Shown one piece after another: positions 7,800-39,502 of a stretch of DNA of 64,000 nt. Position 1 is the stretch's first letter. Each line of letters starts with the position of its first letter. The translations under genes were made by a program, and so were the position numbers. Source of the stretch: a bacterium (GTDB lineage Bacteria; Patescibacteriota; Dojkabacteria; JAKAPS01; JAJZLI01); the NCBI GenBank assembly GCA_021785355.1, contig JAJYFR010000001.1, forward strand, positions 66,976 through 130,975. Direction: 5' to 3'. The notes under the pieces were generated by a model. That model did no database searches. It was given only the letters and a program-made list of their open reading frames with translations, and was not told where the DNA came from.

Positions 7800-8711
7800 T
7801 TGATTAATAAATTAAAAGATAATTCTTCTAGTAAATCTTACCTTAATGAATTGAACAATATATATTATTCTTTAAATGATGTAATTCCTATAAATAATTA
7901 TACAATCCTGTCAGACATAGGGATTTCTTATCCTGGAGCTGAAATTAGTTCTTTACAAAACTTATCTGGAAATATATATCTAACTGATCCTAAACTGCAA
8001 TATGTATATTCAATATCAGATACTACTCAATCAACTCCAACTCAGTTTGAGAGATTGTCTTCAGGTATATCCATTCCTCAATCAATTACATATTCATTGT
8101 CAAAGAATTCCTTATTTTTATATGACACAGATAGAGGTCTTTTTAGTGTAGCACTAAATGGAACTTTATCTCCAATAATAGGTCCTGTACCAAATTCAAA
8201 TATATCAAGTATTCAATCATATATGGGGAACATCTATATGTTAGATAGCTCTAAAGGTATAATATATAATGTAAACACAACAACTCTTTCATATACTAAT
8301 GGATTAAAATCCAAATATTTAGTAGGTGCAAGGTCGTTTGCTGTAGATGGAAATATTTTTGTTATAGATAAATCTGGTAATATTGTACGTTTTTATGCAA
8401 ATACATATACTCCATTTGCAATTTCTAATTCTCAAGCTATGGAATATTCTTTGAATAAGAGTTCATATATTTATGATAATCAGTACTCTAATTATATATA
8501 TATTGTAGATCCAGCTCATTACAGAATAGTAGTTTTACAAAAACCTGCAGCAGGTTCAGTAAATACAACGGATTATAAATTTGTAAAGCAGTATGTATAT
8601 ACAGGAAGTAATAAAAGCTTATTTTCAAATATAACAGATTTATCGATATCAGCATCTGGAAAGAGTTTTTATTTATTATCTGGAACTAAAATAATTAAAA
8701 TATTTATATGA
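7800..8711 (+). CDS. Hypothetical protein with repeated beta-propeller-like (NHL/YVTN-type) blades
   Basis: 303 aa. Repeats GNIYLTDPK, GNIYMLDSSKGIIYNV, DGNIFVIDKSGNIVRF, NYIYIVDPAHYRIVVL. The only start available is TTG at 7800: frame open from 7638, no ATG/GTG, no SD. Start uncertain. Confidence 0.3.
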   Translation: MINKLKDNSSSKSYLNELNNIYYSLNDVIPINNYTILSDIGISYPGAEISSLQNLSGNIYLTDPKLQYVYSISDTTQSTPTQFERLSSGISIPQSITYSLSKNSLFLYDTDRGLFSVALNGTLSPIIGPVPNSNISSIQSYMGNIYMLDSSKGIIYNVNTTTLSYTNGLKSKYLVGARSFAVDGNIFVIDKSGNIVRFYANTYTPFAISNSQAMEYSLNKSSYIYDNQYSNYIYIVDPAHYRIVVLQKPAAGSVNTTDYKFVKQYVYTGSNKSLFSNITDLSISASGKSFYLLSGTKIIKIFI

Positions 8712-21588: not shown

Positions 21589-21649
21589 TTGACTTTTTCC
21601 ATTTATCATGGTATAAGAATTAAGTTTATAATGCTCTTTTTACAATTTA
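21589..21649 (+). promoter_or_regulatory. rrn promoter (TTGACT-17-TATAAG) plus boxA-like antitermination element
   Basis: TTGACT 21589-21594, TATAAG 21612-21617. TGCTCTTTTTACAATTTA (21632-21649) resembles rrn boxA (TGCTCTTTAACAATTTA). Confidence 0.45.
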
Positions 21650-21713
21650 AAAGTAGTAGGTCTCTAAAATTCTGGATTTTTAATGTTGATCCTACAAATA
21701 ACATTTTTTTTGA

Positions 21714-23481: not shown

Positions 23482-23546
23482 AAAATAAAATATGGTGCTC
23501 TTTTAAAAGTGAATAGAAAAGTGGGTATTTAATATTTAAATTACTC

Positions 23547-26658
<3,112 letters not shown>

Positions 26659-28017: not shown

Positions 28018-30495
28018 ATGGATTTAGATTCAAGTATAGATAAATTTTCAAAAAATGCTATTAGTGCTATTAATTTAGCATATGAATATGCTAATAATAA
28101 TAATTCTGTTTTAGATGTAAAACATTTATTTTTAGGTATAATTAATCAAAAAGAAGGTTTTGTATTTAAAGCGCTTGAAAGTGTAAATTTTAATGCATCT
28201 ATATCTTTTGATGAAATAATATTTGAAGAAAATAAAAAGAATAATGTAGAAATAACGGTCTCTGAAGATTTCAAGAAAGCACTTGTAAACGCGTTCTATG
28301 TTTCTCGTAAAATGGGGCATGTCTACGTTGGTACAGAACATTTAATGTTAGGAATACTTCAGTTAGTAAATAATTCTTTTGTTAAAGAATTACAAAATTT
28401 TGGTTTAGATTTTGAATATTTTCAAAATCTCATATATTCATATGGTAATTATCCTCCTGGAGTATTTTTCCATAATAATGCAACTCTAGATTCTTCAATG
28501 AACATAGATTATCTAAATAGATCAACTCTGTCTTTTATGGCTCAGAATATGGTTGAAAATGCTTCTAAGAATAAAAACATTGAGATTGTAGGTAGAAGTG
28601 AAGAGTTAAATAGAATGATCCATATCTTATCGAGAAGAAATAAAAATAATCCTATTTTAATTGGAGAAGCTGGGGTAGGAAAGACATCTTTGGTAGAATA
28701 TTTGGCATATAAAATATATAAGAAAGATGTCCCTGAGAATATTCAAGATTTTGAAATATGGAATTTAGATTTAGCTAAGTTAATGATGTCAACTGAAATG
28801 AGAGGTGAATTAGAGTCGAAGATTAATAATATCATGGAAGAGATTAAATCAAGGAAAAATGTTATTCTATTTATAGATGAAATACATATGATTTTTAATC
28901 TAGGAAACAATGGTAGTAATAATGATATAGCTAACATGTTAAAACCCCATCTTACAAGTGAATATTTAAGATGTATAGGTGCTACAACTTTATATGAATA
29001 TCAAAGGTTTTTTGAGAATGACACTGCTCTAAATCGCAGATTCTTACCAGTTAAAGTGGATGAATTATCAAAAGAAGATTCAGTTAAAGCTATTCGTAAT
29101 ATAAAGTCAAATATAGAGAAATTTCATAATGTAGTGATAACCGATGAATCAATAAATGAAGCCGTTAATCTTTCAGATCGTTTTATAGTAGATAGATTTC
29201 TTCCGGATAAGGCAATTGATCTGCTAGAAGAATCTGCAACTACAAAAAATTTAGAAGAAAATAAGACGGCAAATAAACTTAGGAATATAAAAAGTAGTTT
29301 AGATAAAGTGTCTATTAAGAAAGAAAGTTATTTGGAAAATAGAAGGTACATGCAATCTTTGTATTATCAAGAAAAAGAGAATGACTTGAAAATGAAGATT
29401 AGTACTTTAAATAATGAAATTAAATCAAACAGTAAAAAAGTTTTTAAAGAAGATATTGTAGATGTTGTATCAAAATGGACAGGAATCCCTGTATATAATA
29501 TAACTAATTCAAATTTAAAATCTGTAAAAAATATAGATTTAAAAATAAAGAAAGAAATAATAGGTCAGGATAATGCAGTAGAGAGAGTGGTAAGTGTTTT
29601 AAGAAGCGCTAGAGTAGGATTTAGAGATGAGACTAGACCCTTAGGCATATTCTTGTTTGTAGGCCCTACAGGAGTAGGTAAGACTGAATTAGCAAAACAA
29701 ATAGCATTGAAATATATGGGAAGCTCAAAATCTCTTGTTCAAATAGATATGAGTGAATACATGGAAGCCCACAGTGTATCTAAGTTTATAGGTTCTCCCC
29801 CTGGATATGTTGGATATCAAGATGGAGGGCAACTCACTGAAAAAGTTAAAAATAAACCTTATTCAGTAGTTCTTTTTGATGAAATAGAAAAAGCTCATCC
29901 AGAAGTTTTAAATATATTATTGCAAATGATGGAAGAAGGTCATTTAACTGATAGTAGAGGTCGATTTATCAATTTTAAGAATACTATAATAGTAATGACT
30001 TCTAACATAGGCTCAGATATTATTGAGAACAATTCTTTGCTTGGATTTAATGTTAGTAATGATATTTCTTCTGCTACTGATAAAGAAATAGAGAGTGAAT
30101 ATGATTCTATAGAGGATGATACTTTAATAAAACTTAAAGATTATCTTTTACCCGAATTTTTAAATAGAATTGATGACATAGTTGTATTTAAGTCTCTTAA
30201 TAGGACCGATGCGCTTAAAATAGTGAAGAAAATAGCTAAGAAATATATAGAAAAATTAAATAAAATTAATATAGAGATAGAGTTTTCTGATAACTTCTTA
30301 AAATTTATATCAGAAAAAGGATTCAGCGAAGAATTTGGAGCTAGGCAATTAAGGAGAATCTTTACTAAATATACAGAAACAAGTCTATCGTCATTCTTTA
30401 TAGAAAACTCAAACTTCTCTATAGTTGAAAACTCTTCAAAGAAATTAATATTAGATATAGATAAAGACTCAAAGGTCAATATTAGTATTCTTTAA
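28018..30495 (+). CDS. clpC: ATP-dependent Clp protease ATP-binding subunit ClpC
   Basis: 825 aa. Two Clp_N repeats, AAA1 GEAGVGKT, middle coiled-coil, AAA2 GPTGVGKTELAK, sensor-2 region. Confidence 0.85.
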   Translation: MDLDSSIDKFSKNAISAINLAYEYANNNNSVLDVKHLFLGIINQKEGFVFKALESVNFNASISFDEIIFEENKKNNVEITVSEDFKKALVNAFYVSRKMGHVYVGTEHLMLGILQLVNNSFVKELQNFGLDFEYFQNLIYSYGNYPPGVFFHNNATLDSSMNIDYLNRSTLSFMAQNMVENASKNKNIEIVGRSEELNRMIHILSRRNKNNPILIGEAGVGKTSLVEYLAYKIYKKDVPENIQDFEIWNLDLAKLMMSTEMRGELESKINNIMEEIKSRKNVILFIDEIHMIFNLGNNGSNNDIANMLKPHLTSEYLRCIGATTLYEYQRFFENDTALNRRFLPVKVDELSKEDSVKAIRNIKSNIEKFHNVVITDESINEAVNLSDRFIVDRFLPDKAIDLLEESATTKNLEENKTANKLRNIKSSLDKVSIKKESYLENRRYMQSLYYQEKENDLKMKISTLNNEIKSNSKKVFKEDIVDVVSKWTGIPVYNITNSNLKSVKNIDLKIKKEIIGQDNAVERVVSVLRSARVGFRDETRPLGIFLFVGPTGVGKTELAKQIALKYMGSSKSLVQIDMSEYMEAHSVSKFIGSPPGYVGYQDGGQLTEKVKNKPYSVVLFDEIEKAHPEVLNILLQMMEEGHLTDSRGRFINFKNTIIVMTSNIGSDIIENNSLLGFNVSNDISSATDKEIESEYDSIEDDTLIKLKDYLLPEFLNRIDDIVVFKSLNRTDALKIVKKIAKKYIEKLNKINIEIEFSDNFLKFISEKGFSEEFGARQLRRIFTKYTETSLSSFFIENSNFSIVENSSKKLILDIDKDSKVNISIL

Positions 30496-30603
30496 ACAAC
30501 TTATCCACACTAATACAATTGTGTTAAACTTATCCACAATTTTTAATTAAAGCCTTTAAATCAATGTTTTTGAATGCATTTTGAGAGATAAATATCTATG
30601 GGG

Positions 30604-30632
30604 TTGACATAAATAACTTTATAGGTTAGAAT
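30604..30632 (+). promoter_or_regulatory. Strong sigma70 consensus promoter P1 (TTGACA-17-TAGAAT) driving a short structured transcript
   Basis: TTGACA 30604-30609, TAGAAT 30627-30632. Confidence 0.45.
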
Positions 30633-30759
30633 ATAAATGTTCTTAAAAAAATTAATAAAATAAACTTACATCCCTGGGTCTGGTTAGTAAAAGAAGCTTT
30701 GCTGGTCCCATGGATGTGAGTTTATAATAATAAGTTAATTTTTTTTTTAATTTATTATT

Positions 30760-30795
30760 GGGATCGGTGGGGGGCAGTACCGATCCCTTTTTTTT
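30760..30795 (+). terminator. Rho-independent terminator/attenuator upstream of rplJ
   Basis: Stem gggatcggt (30760-30768) / accgatccc (30779-30787), G-rich loop, then 8 T (30788-30795). Confidence 0.6.
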
Positions 30796-30799
30796 GTGT

Positions 30800-30828
30800 T
30801 TGACTAATTCTATATTTTTGTATAGAAT
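30800..30828 (+). promoter_or_regulatory. Second consensus promoter P2 (TTGACT-17-TAGAAT) immediately downstream of the terminator, about 80 nt upstream of rplJ
   Basis: TTGACT 30800-30805, TAGAAT 30823-30828. Leader contains the hairpin gtaggat...atcctac (about 30857-30890). Confidence 0.45.
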
Positions 30829-30907
30829 ATAGTTCGTACACTTTTTAGTTAAAGACAGTAGGATCCAATCTGGATTAAAAGTTCATCCTACAGAAACTAC
30901 AAAATCT

Positions 30908-31432
30908 ATGGCAATAAATAAACAAAGAAAGCAAGATTTATTAAAATTATATGATATAGAAATATCTAATTCTGAATGTATATTTTTTATAAATACTAAT
31001 GGTTTAAATGTTATAACTATTGATAACTTAAGAAATTCATTAAGTGAGTTTGAAGGTGCAAAATATAAACTGATAAAAAATACTCTATTTAAAAAATCTC
31101 TTAAAGAATTAAAGTTTACAGATGATGTTATAGATTCTATATCAGGATATAACGCAGTTATTTTTGCTCATAAAGATAGTAATCTTTTAGCAAAATTAAT
31201 AATTAAATTTTGTGAAGACAATAGTGTTAATGTAAATTTTGCTATTTTAGATAAGCAAAAATTGTTAGTTGATGATGTTGTTAAACTAAGTAATATTAAA
31301 TCAAAGGAAGTATTAGTACTTAATATGATATATATACTTAAGGATGGAATTAATAATGTGGTTCATTCATTAAATTATAATACTAATTTATTAGTTAATA
31401 CTTTAGATTTAATTGAAAATAAAAGGGGGTGA
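30908..31432 (+). CDS. rplJ: 50S ribosomal protein L10
   Basis: 174 aa. Followed 8 nt later by rplL, the canonical rplJ-rplL pair. L10-like N-terminus. Confidence 0.75.
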   Translation: MAINKQRKQDLLKLYDIEISNSECIFFINTNGLNVITIDNLRNSLSEFEGAKYKLIKNTLFKKSLKELKFTDDVIDSISGYNAVIFAHKDSNLLAKLIIKFCEDNSVNVNFAILDKQKLLVDDVVKLSNIKSKEVLVLNMIYILKDGINNVVHSLNYNTNLLVNTLDLIENKRG

Positions 31433-31440
31433 ATTAACAA

Positions 31441-31845
31441 ATGAAAGACAATGATAAAAAATTAAGTTCTATTGTTTCTGAGATAGAGAAGTTAAATATA
31501 GTAGAAGTTTCAGAATTGGTAAAACTTTTAGAAGAAAAATTCGATGTAAAAGCTAATAATCAAATGCAATTTGTTGCTGCAAATAATCAGTCTGTTGCAA
31601 GTGGTGAAACAGAAGAAGCTACTGAAGAGAAAGATGTGTTTGAAGTCGTATTAGAAAGTGCTGGAGATAAAAAAATTGAAGTTATTAAAGCTTTAAGAGT
31701 CGTAAGTCCTGAATTAGGATTAAAAGAAGCAAAAGATTTGACAGAATCTACTCCAAAAACAATAAAGGAGTCTGTTAATAAAGAAGAAGCTGAAAAAATA
31801 AAGAAATTATTTGAAGATGCTGGTGCTAAAATAACTTTAAAGTAA
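31441..31845 (+). CDS. rplL: 50S ribosomal protein L7/L12
   Basis: 134 aa. Ala/Glu-rich hinge and the conserved C-terminal domain (IEVIKALRVVSPELGLKEAKDL ... AEKIKKLFEDAGAKITLK). Confidence 0.9.
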   Translation: MKDNDKKLSSIVSEIEKLNIVEVSELVKLLEEKFDVKANNQMQFVAANNQSVASGETEEATEEKDVFEVVLESAGDKKIEVIKALRVVSPELGLKEAKDLTESTPKTIKESVNKEEAEKIKKLFEDAGAKITLK

Positions 31846-31870: not shown

Positions 31871-31903
31871 AAAGAAAGGGGATTTTTAAGAATCCCTTTC
31901 TTT
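31871..31903. terminator. Candidate bidirectional terminator hairpin between rplL (+) and the convergent membrane-protein gene (-)
   Basis: aaagaaaggg (31871-31880) / ccctttcttt (31894-31903), 13-nt loop. Weak flanking U-runs. Confidence 0.35.
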
Positions 31904-36500: not shown

Positions 36501-37766
36501 TTAATTTATATTTTCATGTAGTGTAGAAAGGAATTCTGAGTTATTCTTTGTTTTCTTTAATCTATCTATCAATAATTGACTACTTTCTGTAGATTTTAAT
36601 GTATCTAACATTCTTCTGATTAACCAAGATTGACTAAGAACTTCAGATGATAAAAGTTGTTCTTCGTGTCTAGTACCTGATTTTATAACATCTATTGCTG
36701 GATACACTCTTCTTTCAGAAAGTTTTCTATCTAAGTGAAGTTCCATATTTCCTGTTCCTTTGAATTCTTCAAAAACTAAATCATCCATTCTACTTCCTGT
36801 ATCAACCAATGCCGTAGCTATTATAGTTAAACTTCCATACTCTTCTAAATTTCTAGCTGATCCAAAGAATTTCTTAGGAGGGTATAGAGCAATTGGGTCA
36901 AAACCTCCTGATAAAGTTCTTCCTGACGGAGGTACTGTTATATTATATGCTCTAGCTAGTCTTGTTAAACTATCCATTAATATTATTACATCCTTTCCTT
37001 CTTCAACAAGTCTCTTTGCACGATCAAGTGCTATTTCTGCTACTTTTATTTGATTGTCAGGTTGCTCATCAAAATTAGAGGCAAAAACTTCTGCGGAGGT
37101 GGATTTCCTTATATCTGTAACCTCTTCAGGTCTTTCACCTATAAGTAAAATCATTAAATGTATATTTTTGTCATTTCTAGTGACTCCATCGGCTATATCT
37201 TTCAATAATGTTGTTTTACCAGACTTAGGAGGTGAGACTATCATACCTCTTTGCCCTTTGCCGATAGGCGCCAATAAGTCTATAATTCTGTTAGAAAGTC
37301 GAAATTGATCAATTTCTAAAATTATTTGTTCATTTGGAAAAATAGGAGTTAATCTTTCAAAAGGAGTTCTTTTTGCAGCTTCATTTGGGTCTCTATCATT
37401 AATAGATTCTATTTTTAAAACACTTAAGTACCTTTCATTATCTTTTGGTAATCTTGCTTTACCTTTTACATAATCACCTTGTTTTAAATTAAATTTCTTT
37501 ATTTGAGAACCTGAAACATAAACATCATTTTCTCCAGGTAGTAGAGTATATGATCTGAGAATTCCGTGTATTCCGTCATTTATTATTTCAAGAATTCCTT
37601 CTATACTTATATCAGCTTCATCCTTATCAATAGACTTTAAAATACTAAAAATCAAATCTTTTTTATTTAGTTCTTGATAATTATCAATTTTTTGTTTTTC
37701 AGCTATTATTCTTAAGTCCGCTATACTTTTAGAATCTAAACTTTGTAGTGAGAATGTTTCTTTCAT
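36501..37766 (-). CDS. rho: Transcription termination factor Rho
   Basis: 421 aa. N-terminal RNA-binding domain. Walker A GKGQRGMIVSPPKSGKTTLL. RecA-like core. Confidence 0.9.
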   Translation of the reverse strand: MKETFSLQSLDSKSIADLRIIAEKQKIDNYQELNKKDLIFSILKSIDKDEADISIEGILEIINDGIHGILRSYTLLPGENDVYVSGSQIKKFNLKQGDYVKGKARLPKDNERYLSVLKIESINDRDPNEAAKRTPFERLTPIFPNEQIILEIDQFRLSNRIIDLLAPIGKGQRGMIVSPPKSGKTTLLKDIADGVTRNDKNIHLMILLIGERPEEVTDIRKSTSAEVFASNFDEQPDNQIKVAEIALDRAKRLVEEGKDVIILMDSLTRLARAYNITVPPSGRTLSGGFDPIALYPPKKFFGSARNLEEYGSLTIIATALVDTGSRMDDLVFEEFKGTGNMELHLDRKLSERRVYPAIDVIKSGTRHEEQLLSSEVLSQSWLIRRMLDTLKSTESSQLLIDRLKKTKNNSEFLSTLHENIN

Positions 37767-37803
37767 GTTAAGTAATTTTTTAATATATAAAATATAATAG
37801 GTA

Positions 37804-38499
37804 CTATATAACTTTGATAATATCTTCTATATTTAGTTTTAGAGATGCACCCATTGTAGGACATATATAGATAGTTTTAAAAACTGATTGAGAAGGTTTC
37901 CCTGTTATATTAATTATCGATTTTATTATTTCAATAAAATTATCATACAATTCTTCTTTTGTATTGTCTATATTTCCTATAATAGTATGAATTGTGCCAG
38001 TTTGATCTGATTTATAGTCATATTTACCACTTTTATATTTTTCAACAGTGCCTTCTAAATCTTCTGTAACTGTACCAAGTTTAGGGTTTGGCATCAGAGA
38101 TTTTGGTCCTAATATTTTTCCTAAAATAGCTATTTTAGGCATTACATTTGGAGTTGCTATAACTAGGTCAAAATCAGTCCATCCTGATTGAATTTTTTCT
38201 ATATATTCATCTAATCCTATGTAATCAAATTCTTTTTTTAATTTTTCGCTAAGATCTTTTCTGTCAGTTAATAATAATATTTTTTTATCTTTTCCAACCT
38301 TATTTTTATAAAAAACACTACCTCTAATAATCTGTTTATTATCCTTTTTACTAGATAATGTAGATATATGAACTTCAATACTTCCTTTGAAGTTAGATAT
38401 AGAAAGATTTTTTACTGTATCAAAGATATCAATATTAAATACATTATTTATTGTATTTTCTTTTAATTTTGTTATATATTTTTTACTTCTTTTTTTCAT
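37804..38499 (-). CDS. rplA: 50S ribosomal protein L1
   Basis: 231 aa, downstream of rplK in the conserved order. L1-like composition. Confidence 0.8.
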   Translation of the reverse strand: MKKRSKKYITKLKENTINNVFNIDIFDTVKNLSISNFKGSIEVHISTLSSKKDNKQIIRGSVFYKNKVGKDKKILLLTDRKDLSEKLKKEFDYIGLDEYIEKIQSGWTDFDLVIATPNVMPKIAILGKILGPKSLMPNPKLGTVTEDLEGTVEKYKSGKYDYKSDQTGTIHTIIGNIDNTKEELYDNFIEIIKSIINITGKPSQSVFKTIYICPTMGASLKLNIEDIIKVI

Positions 38500-38512
38500 A
38501 ATGATTTAATGT

Positions 38513-38941
38513 CTATTCTTTTATAGTTATTCCCATATTTATAGCAGTTCCTGCTATAATTTTCTTTGCTTGATCTATATCATTTGTATTTAGATCTGCC
38601 ATTTTTGTTTTTGCAATTTCTTCTAATTGGTTTTGATTTAATTCACCTACTTTTTCTTTTAAACTGTCTTTAGAACCTTTTTCTAAGTTTAGTGCTTTTT
38701 TTATCAATATTGCTGCAGGAGGGGTTTTTATTATAAATTTAAAAGTTCTATCAGCATATATATCTATTATTACAGGAAATATAAGATCTCCTTTATCTTT
38801 TGTTATATTATTGAATTGATTGCAAAAATCCATAATATTAACTCCATGTTGACCAAGTGCTGGTCCTATAGGTGGAGTAGGTGAAGCTTTTCCTGCTTTA
38901 ATTTGTAATTTTACTTGTGCTGTTACTTTTTTATTATTCAT
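38513..38941 (-). CDS. rplK: 50S ribosomal protein L11
   Basis: 142 aa. [32 protein letters not shown] is the L11 N-terminal signature. Confidence 0.9.
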
Positions 38942-38950
38942 AAAAATATA

Positions 38951-39502
38951 TTATATTAATTTTATTTGCATTAAGTCTAATTCTACTGGAGTTTCTCTTC
39001 CAAATATTGAAATTAGAACCTTTACTTTTCCTTTTTCTTCATTAACTTCACTAACCTTACCATTGAAATCTTTAAAAGCTCCATCTGTAACGACAATAGC
39101 ATCATCTACATTAAATGTAGTTTGTACTGCTGGAGTATCCAATTCCATGAATTTCAATATAGCATTAACTTCTTGTTCTATAAGGGGAGATGGTTTATTA
39201 CCTGGTCCAACAAAACCTGTAACTCCTTGAGTATCTCTTACAATAGGCCAAGTATCTTTATTTAATTCCATTTTTATTAAAACATATCCAGGAAGAATCT
39301 TATCTTTTACTTGTCTCTTTTTACCATCAGATATGACTGTTTTATTTTGAGTTGGGATAACAATATCTTCTATATATTTAGATAAATTAGCTGTATCAGC
39401 TCTCTGTTTAATTATTATAGAAACTTTATTTTCATGACCAGTAAACACATTTACTGCATACCATTTAAAATTATATTTATTATTATCTTTTTTCTTTTCC
39501 AT
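38951..39502 (-). CDS. nusG: Transcription termination/antitermination factor NusG
   Basis: 183 aa. NGN domain (KWYAVNVFTGHENKV) and C-terminal KOW region (GKVSEVNEEKGKVKV). Confidence 0.85.
   Translation of the reverse strand: MEKKKDNNKYNFKWYAVNVFTGHENKVSIIIKQRADTANLSKYIEDIVIPTQNKTVISDGKKRQVKDKILPGYVLIKMELNKDTWPIVRDTQGVTGFVGPGNKPSPLIEQEVNAILKFMELDTPAVQTTFNVDDAIVVTDGAFKDFNGKVSEVNEEKGKVKVLISIFGRETPVELDLMQIKLI

Follow-up and report, generated by a model that had tools for sequence, protein, structure and literature searches.

Whether the promoter, hairpin and terminator that lie upstream of the ribosomal protein genes rplJ and rplL in a Dojkabacteria genome form the leader of that operon or a gene of their own is the question raised by the DNA analyzed here. 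The analysis covered 64,000 nt of contig JAJYFR010000001.1 (assembly GCA_021785355.1), referred to below as the window. An earlier examination of the letters alone (the sequence-only reading) had listed two consensus promoters (P1 and P2), a hairpin and a terminator after P1, a second hairpin after P2, and rplJ, all of which we found where it had placed them, and had proposed that the P1 unit is either the attenuator of the L10 operon or a stand-alone small RNA. Our results indicate that positions 30604-30795 most probably constitute a gene of their own, encoding a structured small RNA of ~157 nt that belongs to an unannotated family conserved across Patescibacteria. This family is new relative to Rfam 15 and the searchable literature. 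The parts of the unit are as follows:

30604-30632, + strand: promoter P1, TTGACA-17-TAGAAT, with TATGGGG ahead of the -35 (11 of 12 consensus positions)
30639-30795, + strand: predicted small RNA, ~157 nt (5′ end placed from the -10, 3′ end at the U-tract)
30660-30725, + strand: H1, a long irregular hairpin of 24 pairs with three single mismatches or bulges (basal stem covarying, upper part conserved)
30671-30714, + strand: conserved core of H1, UCCCUGGGUCUGGUUAGUAAAAGAAGCUUUGCUGGUCCCAUGGA, 44 nt, which barely varies among 12 distinct loci from two clades
30726-30759, + strand: H2, an AU-rich, variable middle hairpin with another sequence in most relatives
30760-30795, + strand: H3, a GC-rich hairpin (30760-30787) followed by U8, with the loop GGGGCAGU at 30771-30778; predicted intrinsic terminator and signature of the family

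Related loci were found by means of L10 homologues, a DNA pattern scan of species-representative genomes, and ClpC homologues (~20 loci sampled, numbered here with the prefix L). The unit of P1, H1 and H3 recurred in 18 distinct relatives. A word-based search placed the L10 homologues in four clusters at 42-50% identity, and the hairpins were kept even at that divergence of L10. Identity of ClpC was 58-72% in a small clade and 46% or below (to 40-46%) thereafter. In the loci linked to rplJ, the order was clpC, two DnaA boxes, P1, H1, H2 (if present), H3 with its U-tract, P2, a second element and rplJ. The flanks of these loci had diverged, the H1 core and H3 were almost unchanged, and the base of H1 covaried. 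In locus L004, a 2396-bp contig, the last ~110 nt consist of H3 in reverse complement joined directly to H1; the inversion looks as if it arose during assembly, at a site rich in hairpins.

P1 was the best promoter match on the + strand within 26-36 kb. Promoter-like hexamers were not more frequent in the window than expected by chance (64 observed vs 71.6 in shuffled sequences), so that in such low-GC DNA a consensus match taken alone is weak evidence. The -35 (TTGACA) and -10 (TAnAAT) of P1 were invariant in eight aligned rplJ-linked loci, and in all sampled lineages the -35 reads TTGAC(A/G), with TATRGG on its 5′ side and a -10 that varies (TAnAAT, TATACT or TATTAT). Both P1 and P2 have the hexamers, 17-bp spacing and conserved position of sigma-70-type promoters. 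The layout of P1 is similar to that of the rRNA promoter at ~21589-21617, and judged by its sequence P1 is a sigma-70-type promoter resembling the rRNA promoter.

The predicted fold of 30638-30795 had an energy of -59.8 kcal/mol compared with -30.7 in shuffled sequences (z = -7.85). H1 had been described in the sequence-only reading as an imperfect 10-bp hairpin at ~30669-30720; the hairpin is real, but it is longer than that, spanning 30660-30725. Its core was nearly unchanged in the 12 loci although ClpC of the two clades concerned is only 46-72% identical, and the rare changes within it either kept pairing (G-U to A-U, U-G to U-A) or exchanged a U-U mismatch for G-A. Every sampled lineage keeps an H1 frame of the form UCCC-4bp-U-CUGG...CUGG-K-4bp-N-GGA, a helix with tandem G-U pairs and two mismatches. 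H2, which had been overlooked, is absent in L003, L010 and L011, and larger inserts occupy its position in L013, L016 and L017. H3 (GGGATCGGTGGGGGGCAGTACCGATCCC followed by T8) has a 10-bp stem with 6 GC pairs, in agreement with the strong terminator previously assigned to this position. Its sequence, a GC-rich stem-loop followed by a U-tract, is that of a predicted intrinsic (Rho-independent) terminator, and it was the strongest of 7 terminator-like sites within 26-36 kb, where 2.4 were expected from shuffles. The H3 loop was invariant in 15 of 15 aligned lineages. Its stem has undergone G-C to A-U as well as A-U to G-U changes without loss of pairing. Since pairing is kept by way of G-U pairs, the constraint acts at the level of RNA and not of a DNA palindrome. 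A small ORF within the RNA (MDVSL) was dropped as a candidate upon direct reading, as it is not conserved.

Covariation was assessed in two alignments. In the first (A2; 10 sequences), 98.2% of the cells paired and 7 pairs showed double changes, 6 of them in H1. Among 500 shuffles, not one attained the paired fraction or the covariation score and 15 attained the number of double-change pairs; controls in which the 3′ partners were slid paired in 36-50% of cells. The second (A4; 15 sequences), which was aligned to a covariance model, gave 98.0% of cells paired and 18 pairs with double changes, 17 of them in H1; on every measure the observed value exceeded those of all 500 shuffles, and pairing in the slid controls was 38-51%. 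Only sequences of the window and sister clades went into the covariance model (R1). R1 matched six distant copies that had been left out of its building, in each case over the whole model (51-70 bits; E-values of 1e-12 to 1e-18). It produced one match per locus, including one in the window with a score of 153.8 bits.

The genes that follow the unit differ among relatives. In L012, whose ClpC is 61% identical to that of the window, the boxes, promoter, H1, H2 and H3 lie between clpC and rho, while in L013 (ClpC 46% identical) and in the metagenome contigs L016 and L017 (37-38% GC) the unit lies between radA and rho. Six more distant loci (L018-L023; Candidatus Dojkabacteria among them), reached through ClpC homologues of 41-45% identity, have the order S1, clpC, radA, a gap of 430-570 bp and a next gene, which is rho in five of the six; L019 has an ORF of 518 residues there, without a Pfam match. 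Each of these gaps contains a promoter (TATRGG-N-TTGAC, spacer, -10), one or two H1-like hairpins, H3 and another promoter, and the distant H3 is almost unchanged (GGGGUCGGU-N-GGGGCAGU-ACCGAUCCC). Thus, ten loci (L012, L013, L016, L017 and L018-L023) carry the unit with no rplJ nearby, and its occurrence upstream of rho without rplJ indicates that it is independent of rplJ and is not its attenuator. A promoter-like site follows H3 in every lineage, being similar to TTGACT/A-17-TAnAAT before rplJ and to TTGACA-17-TATACT before rho. Two tandem H1-like hairpins, each with the frame UCCC...U-CUGG/CUGG-G...GGA, were observed in L020 (11980-12110), L021 (9105-9235) and L023; by their sequence, the conserved H1 module appears to be duplicated within the RNA of these three loci.

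Upstream of P1, two further features that the sequence-only reading had missed were found:

30501-30509, + strand: DnaA box 1 (TTATCCACA), a perfect 9-mer 103 bp upstream of the P1 -35
30530-30538, + strand: DnaA box 2 (TTATCCACA), a perfect 9-mer 74 bp upstream of the P1 -35

These are the only perfect matches to TTATCCACA in the 64 kb. For 10 of the 12 distinct loci in the window and sister clades, the distance from the start of the box to the -35 is 101-103 bp for box 1 and 71-74 bp for box 2; the values for L011 and L012 are 90-93 and 62-64 bp. The two boxes are spaced 28-30 bp from each other at all loci of these two close clades. The sequence between boxes and promoter is not conserved, and the position of the boxes relative to the upstream stop codon varies. 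E. coli DnaA prefers closely spaced pairs of sites, according to the title of PMC11317965. The clustering and conserved position of the boxes in the two close clades are those of a DnaA-box regulatory site with putative binding, and their fixed geometry suggests that P1 may be under DnaA control in this sub-lineage; the more distant lineages lack the box pair.

Downstream of H3, a second transcription unit begins, with the following parts:

30800-30828, + strand: promoter P2, TTGACT-17-TAGAAT, for rplJL (10 of 12 consensus positions; conserved)
30852-30891, + strand: L10 leader-like element, AAGACAG-UAGGA-(inner hairpin)-UUAAAAGUUC-AUCCUAC (40 nt; ends 16 nt before the rplJ ATG)
30908-31845, + strand: rplJ (30908-31432, ATG at 30908) and rplL (31441-31845), open reading frames; L10 homologues with PF00466, rplL with Pfam L12 domains

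The second hairpin noted before rplJ (gtaggat...atcctac, 30858-30891) is present; what had not been recognized is that it forms part of a homologue of the L10 leader (core AAGACAG-UAGG-(hairpin)-UUAAAA-CCUAC), the window copy of which reads AAGACAGUAGGA...UUAAAAGUUCAUCCUAC. Among eight sequences of this element, the outer and inner helices paired in 95% of cells, four pairs showed double changes, and the covariation score was reached by 0 of 500 shuffles. The equivalent in L003, together with its downstream terminator, was aligned by Infernal to the whole Rfam L10_leader model with the core AAGACAGcAGGg-(hairpin)-UUAA..CCUgC visible, at a score of 14.1 bits vs a gathering score of 44; the window copy was unreported at E <= 10. 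The element at 30852-30891 has the core consensus of L10_leader (RF00557; AGACAG-AGG, nested hairpin, UUAA bulge and CCU) upstream of rplJ but falls below the gathering score of 44 bits, and it is therefore termed L10 leader-like and not a certified member. We regard this element after P2 as the actual L10-leader homologue and predicted rplJL operator, with putative binding of L10(L12)4, and rplJ-rplL as the unit that P2 and the element are predicted to serve. A hairpin and U-run (CUUCCUUUUGGAAG-UUUUUUU) lies between the element and rplJ in L003 (3476-3500) and at the equivalent site in L010. No Shine-Dalgarno-like sequence was seen before the rplJ ATG (cagaaactacaaaatctATG, 30892-30910), though the 16S 3′ end has CACCUCCUUU. 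Because the window element has no terminator and rplJ no Shine-Dalgarno sequence, any control of rplJ in the window would be of translation. The duplication of promoters, which had been called unusual, simply reflects two adjacent transcription units.

Autoregulation by L10 through a leader is established, and in the window and seven related species the P1 unit lies directly upstream of rplJ and in the same direction. An L10-leader attenuator, in which P1 starts the rplJ mRNA, H1 binds L10(L12)4 and H3 is the attenuator terminator, was thus a natural proposal of the sequence-only reading, but we consider it highly improbable. Besides the ten loci without rplJ, no L10_leader match was obtained at E <= 10 over 30480-30920, and 30604-30795 has neither the position of an rplJ 5′ leader nor a match to RF00557. 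The core motif (AAGACAG-AGG...UUAA...CCU) is located downstream of P2, not of P1, the second element has its own terminator in L003 and L010, P2 is conserved, and a promoter follows the terminator in every lineage. The other proposal of that reading, a stand-alone small RNA driven by P1, is borne out by conservation, covariation and independence from the downstream gene. Several points nevertheless weigh against a separate small RNA gene. The start, end and abundance of the RNA are all predicted from the DNA, the alignment of the 15 sequences to R1 favours the structure of the model, and no targets of the small RNA were found in the window. The U-tract of H3, U5-U9 in the window clade, is weak in L019 and L020 and is only UUUUCU in L018 and L021-L023. 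In addition, the unit is in all cases directed at the gene immediately downstream, and some read-through or action on that gene may occur. The weak U-tracts and the constant orientation favour a leader or conditional terminator that controls the transcript to which it belongs, in which read-through of H3 from P1 would raise expression of the next gene (rho ancestrally, rplJL here) and H1 and H3 would be a sensor or a modifier of RNA polymerase. The predicted 5′ end, GUUCUU(U)AAAA, is also boxA-like in many lineages, and in L018 the H3 loop, together with its 5′ arm, has a potential pairing partner further upstream. We judge such a leader to be quite unlikely: the unit stayed intact when rplJ replaced rho as the downstream gene, every lineage has a promoter after H3, and the terminator of the window clade is strong. 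No alternative pairing is conserved across lineages, the pairing in L018 being specific to its lineage, and a conserved anti-terminator/terminator switch was rejected, as it was seen in L018 only. A boxA at the 5′ end was likewise rejected, since the word recurs across lineages yet is too common in AT-rich DNA (12 occurrences in 64 kb). Within the window, boxA-like words occur in the rRNA leader (~21643-21656; UGCUCUUUUUACAA) and in the 16S-23S spacer (~23497-23510; UGCUCUUUUAAAAG), and a similar word (GUUCUUAAAAAAA) is found at ~30639-30651, at the predicted 5′ end of the small RNA, where it recurs in L003, L011, L018, L019 and L020.

A base-pairing regulatory small RNA, with C/U-rich sites of target mRNAs as the partners of its G-rich H3 loop (GGGGCAGU) or its purine-rich H1 loop, is in our view an unlikely explanation. 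It would fit the 8-nt single-stranded motif, invariant across all sampled lineages, and the H3 loop can pair with the rho leader (UUGCCCCAA) in L021 and L023 (-11 to -15.5 kcal/mol; p <= 0.03), but this pairing was not significant in the other six lineages tested. The window contains no exact complement of the H3 loop and, apart from its own antisense, only 1-mismatch matches to the complement of the H1 loop; moreover, seed pairing leaves the invariance of 44 mostly helical nt of H1 unexplained. A strongly diverged form of a known housekeeping RNA, either SRP 4.5S RNA or 6S RNA, would account for the long hairpin with its conserved upper part and covarying base, the strong promoter, and the presence of the unit in every Patescibacteria lineage sampled. 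In addition, the 5′ strand GGUCUGGUU resembles GGUCAGGUC of E. coli 4.5S RNA. This explanation is nonetheless very unlikely. In the scan of 30480-30920 (441-nt query), SRP, 6S and L10_leader gave no match at E <= 10, no Rfam 15 family, these three included, reached its gathering score or a permissive E-value on the unit, and the gaps of L018-L023 matched no Rfam family at E <= 1. The apex of H1 is a 7-nt loop, AAAAGAA, and the hairpin has neither the GNAR tetraloop nor the AGCA/AGG symmetric loop of bacterial SRP RNA (RF00169/RF01854); in place of the latter is a CUGG/CUGG helix backed by G-U to A-U changes. The separate hairpins likewise lack the large central bubble and the 5′/3′ closing stem that 6S RNA (RF00013) requires. 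The SRP and 6S readings were therefore ruled out by the missing model matches and defining loops or bubble, in line with the sequence-only reading, which had itself discarded an SRP-like interpretation. The searchable literature contained nothing relevant on a small RNA, SRP RNA or 6S RNA of Patescibacteria/CPR. Least probable of all, and close to negligible, is a DNA-level element such as a replication origin, recombination site or palindromic operator. Two perfect DnaA boxes, an AT-rich stretch and a GC-rich palindrome would suit it, but only two boxes are present, the asymmetric loop of H3 is conserved, and H1 and H3 keep their pairing through G-U pairs, which are non-palindromic in DNA. 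A replication origin in particular was ruled out by GC skew, which is positive across the site with no sign change at 30.5 kb, and by gene orientation, as the rRNA operon to the left would meet a fork from the site head-on.

Other likenesses were also considered. The conserved arms of H1 resemble helix 91 of the organism's own 23S rRNA (26237-26264), the best rRNA match (permutation p of ~0.02-0.03). As the arms differ in L018-L023, mimicry of rRNA was rejected, and the likeness is probably due to chance or specific to the clade. A likeness to the L11/L10-binding region of 23S rRNA failed against the organism's own 23S, and a 12-mer common to the RNA and 23S (GAAGCUUUACUG) falls on a variable bulge. 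In L019, positions 7843-7953 matched L20_leader (RF00558) with 33.8 bits and E = 0.007, below the gathering score of 58.7; this match covers the last part of the S1-domain gene as well as the spacer between it and clpC, with no rplT or infC nearby.

For the small RNA gene, the following mechanism can be proposed. Transcription would start near 30639 and end at the U-tract, and the RNA would be made as a discrete molecule of ~157 nt that acts away from its own locus. The invariant H1 core and H3 loop would be bound by a conserved protein, as in other housekeeping RNA-protein particles, and transcription from P1 would, in the window and sister clades, be coupled to DnaA through the pair of boxes at their fixed distance. 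Long, constant, helical and mismatch-rich RNA is typical of RNAs that are read by proteins, whereas in seed-type small RNAs conservation is usually limited to a short single-stranded segment. Because 44 nt of helical, mismatch-rich RNA and an 8-nt loop have remained constant over deep divergence, a protein-bound structured RNA is the function that we tentatively favour. A bolder and rather doubtful extension is that the RNA may be a fourth housekeeping RNA of Patescibacteria, besides RNase P RNA, SRP RNA and tmRNA, that is abundant, is transcribed from an rRNA-like promoter, has been retained between clpC/radA and rho in all Patescibacteria lineages sampled, serves as the RNA subunit of an RNA-protein particle and is tied to DnaA in one sub-lineage.

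The genes around the unit in the window (GC content 26.9%) are, in order, an rRNA operon (16S, two tRNAs, 23S and 5S), an S1-domain protein, ClpC, the unit itself, rplJ and rplL. Beyond rplL lie Wzy-like and MreB genes on the opposite strand, then PEGA and NDK genes, and last rho, rplA, rplK and nusG on the minus strand. The block of nusG, rplK, rplA and rho (36501-39502) is ~5 kb and an inversion away from rplJ-rplL (30908-31845); the usual rplKAJL cluster is hence split in the window, with rho directly after rplA. In L012 and all more distant relatives rho directly follows the small RNA, unlike in the window, where the small RNA precedes rplJ. A two-way terminator-like hairpin is located at 31876-31899, between rplL and the converging wzy-like gene. 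Compared with the bacterial model, domain I of the 23S rRNA of the window (23547-26657) contains an insertion of ~80 nt, and LAGLIDADG ORFs and a group I intron-like match were seen inside the 23S genes of relatives (L013, 486-1080; L020, 1586-2329).

Patescibacteria have very small genomes with few known regulators, and an RNA conserved across the sampled lineages would be a rare lineage-defining non-coding gene. Its sequence constraint, which is near that of rRNA, its own promoter and its fixed place offer a handle on a partner protein or on links to Rho or DnaA. For annotation, the two stacked units can now be separated, with the 40-nt element next to rplJ as the predicted L10 operator. Since R1 already recognises distant copies, the family can be mapped across genomes.

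With respect to known systems, the element at 30852-30891 shares with L10_leader (RF00557) its position and the core of AAGACAG-(U)AGG, nested hairpin, 3′ UUAA(AA) bulge and CCUAC, whereas P1-H1-H3 shares nothing with that family and half of its copies are upstream of rho. The layout in L003 and L010 is like that of the attenuating L10 leader of Firmicutes, and the window and its closest relatives differ in having no such terminator. The DnaA boxes resemble the pairs by which promoters outside oriC are regulated, in that both are perfect and closely spaced on the upstream side of a promoter; the differences are that the regulated gene here would be a non-coding RNA and that the boxes are far upstream, at about -139 and -110 from the predicted start, and at a fixed distance. 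The small RNA is like bacterial small SRP (4.5S) RNA in being a stand-alone gene with a strong promoter, a long hairpin, a covarying base and an invariant, mismatch-rich upper part, the last of which is as expected for protein recognition in both RNAs. It is unlike 4.5S RNA in lacking the Ffh-binding signature (GNAR tetraloop, symmetric and asymmetric loops) and in possessing an extra invariant 3′ hairpin, H3. The orphan structured RNAs raiA and OLE are bacterial RNAs without known function. Like RNAs of this type, the present family was found by conservation and covariation, is restricted to one large lineage, is under strong sequence constraint and has no known ligand or partner. In contrast to them, it is shorter and simpler, with two conserved modules, and it occupies a fixed genomic place (clpC/radA, RNA, rho), with DnaA boxes upstream in one sub-lineage.

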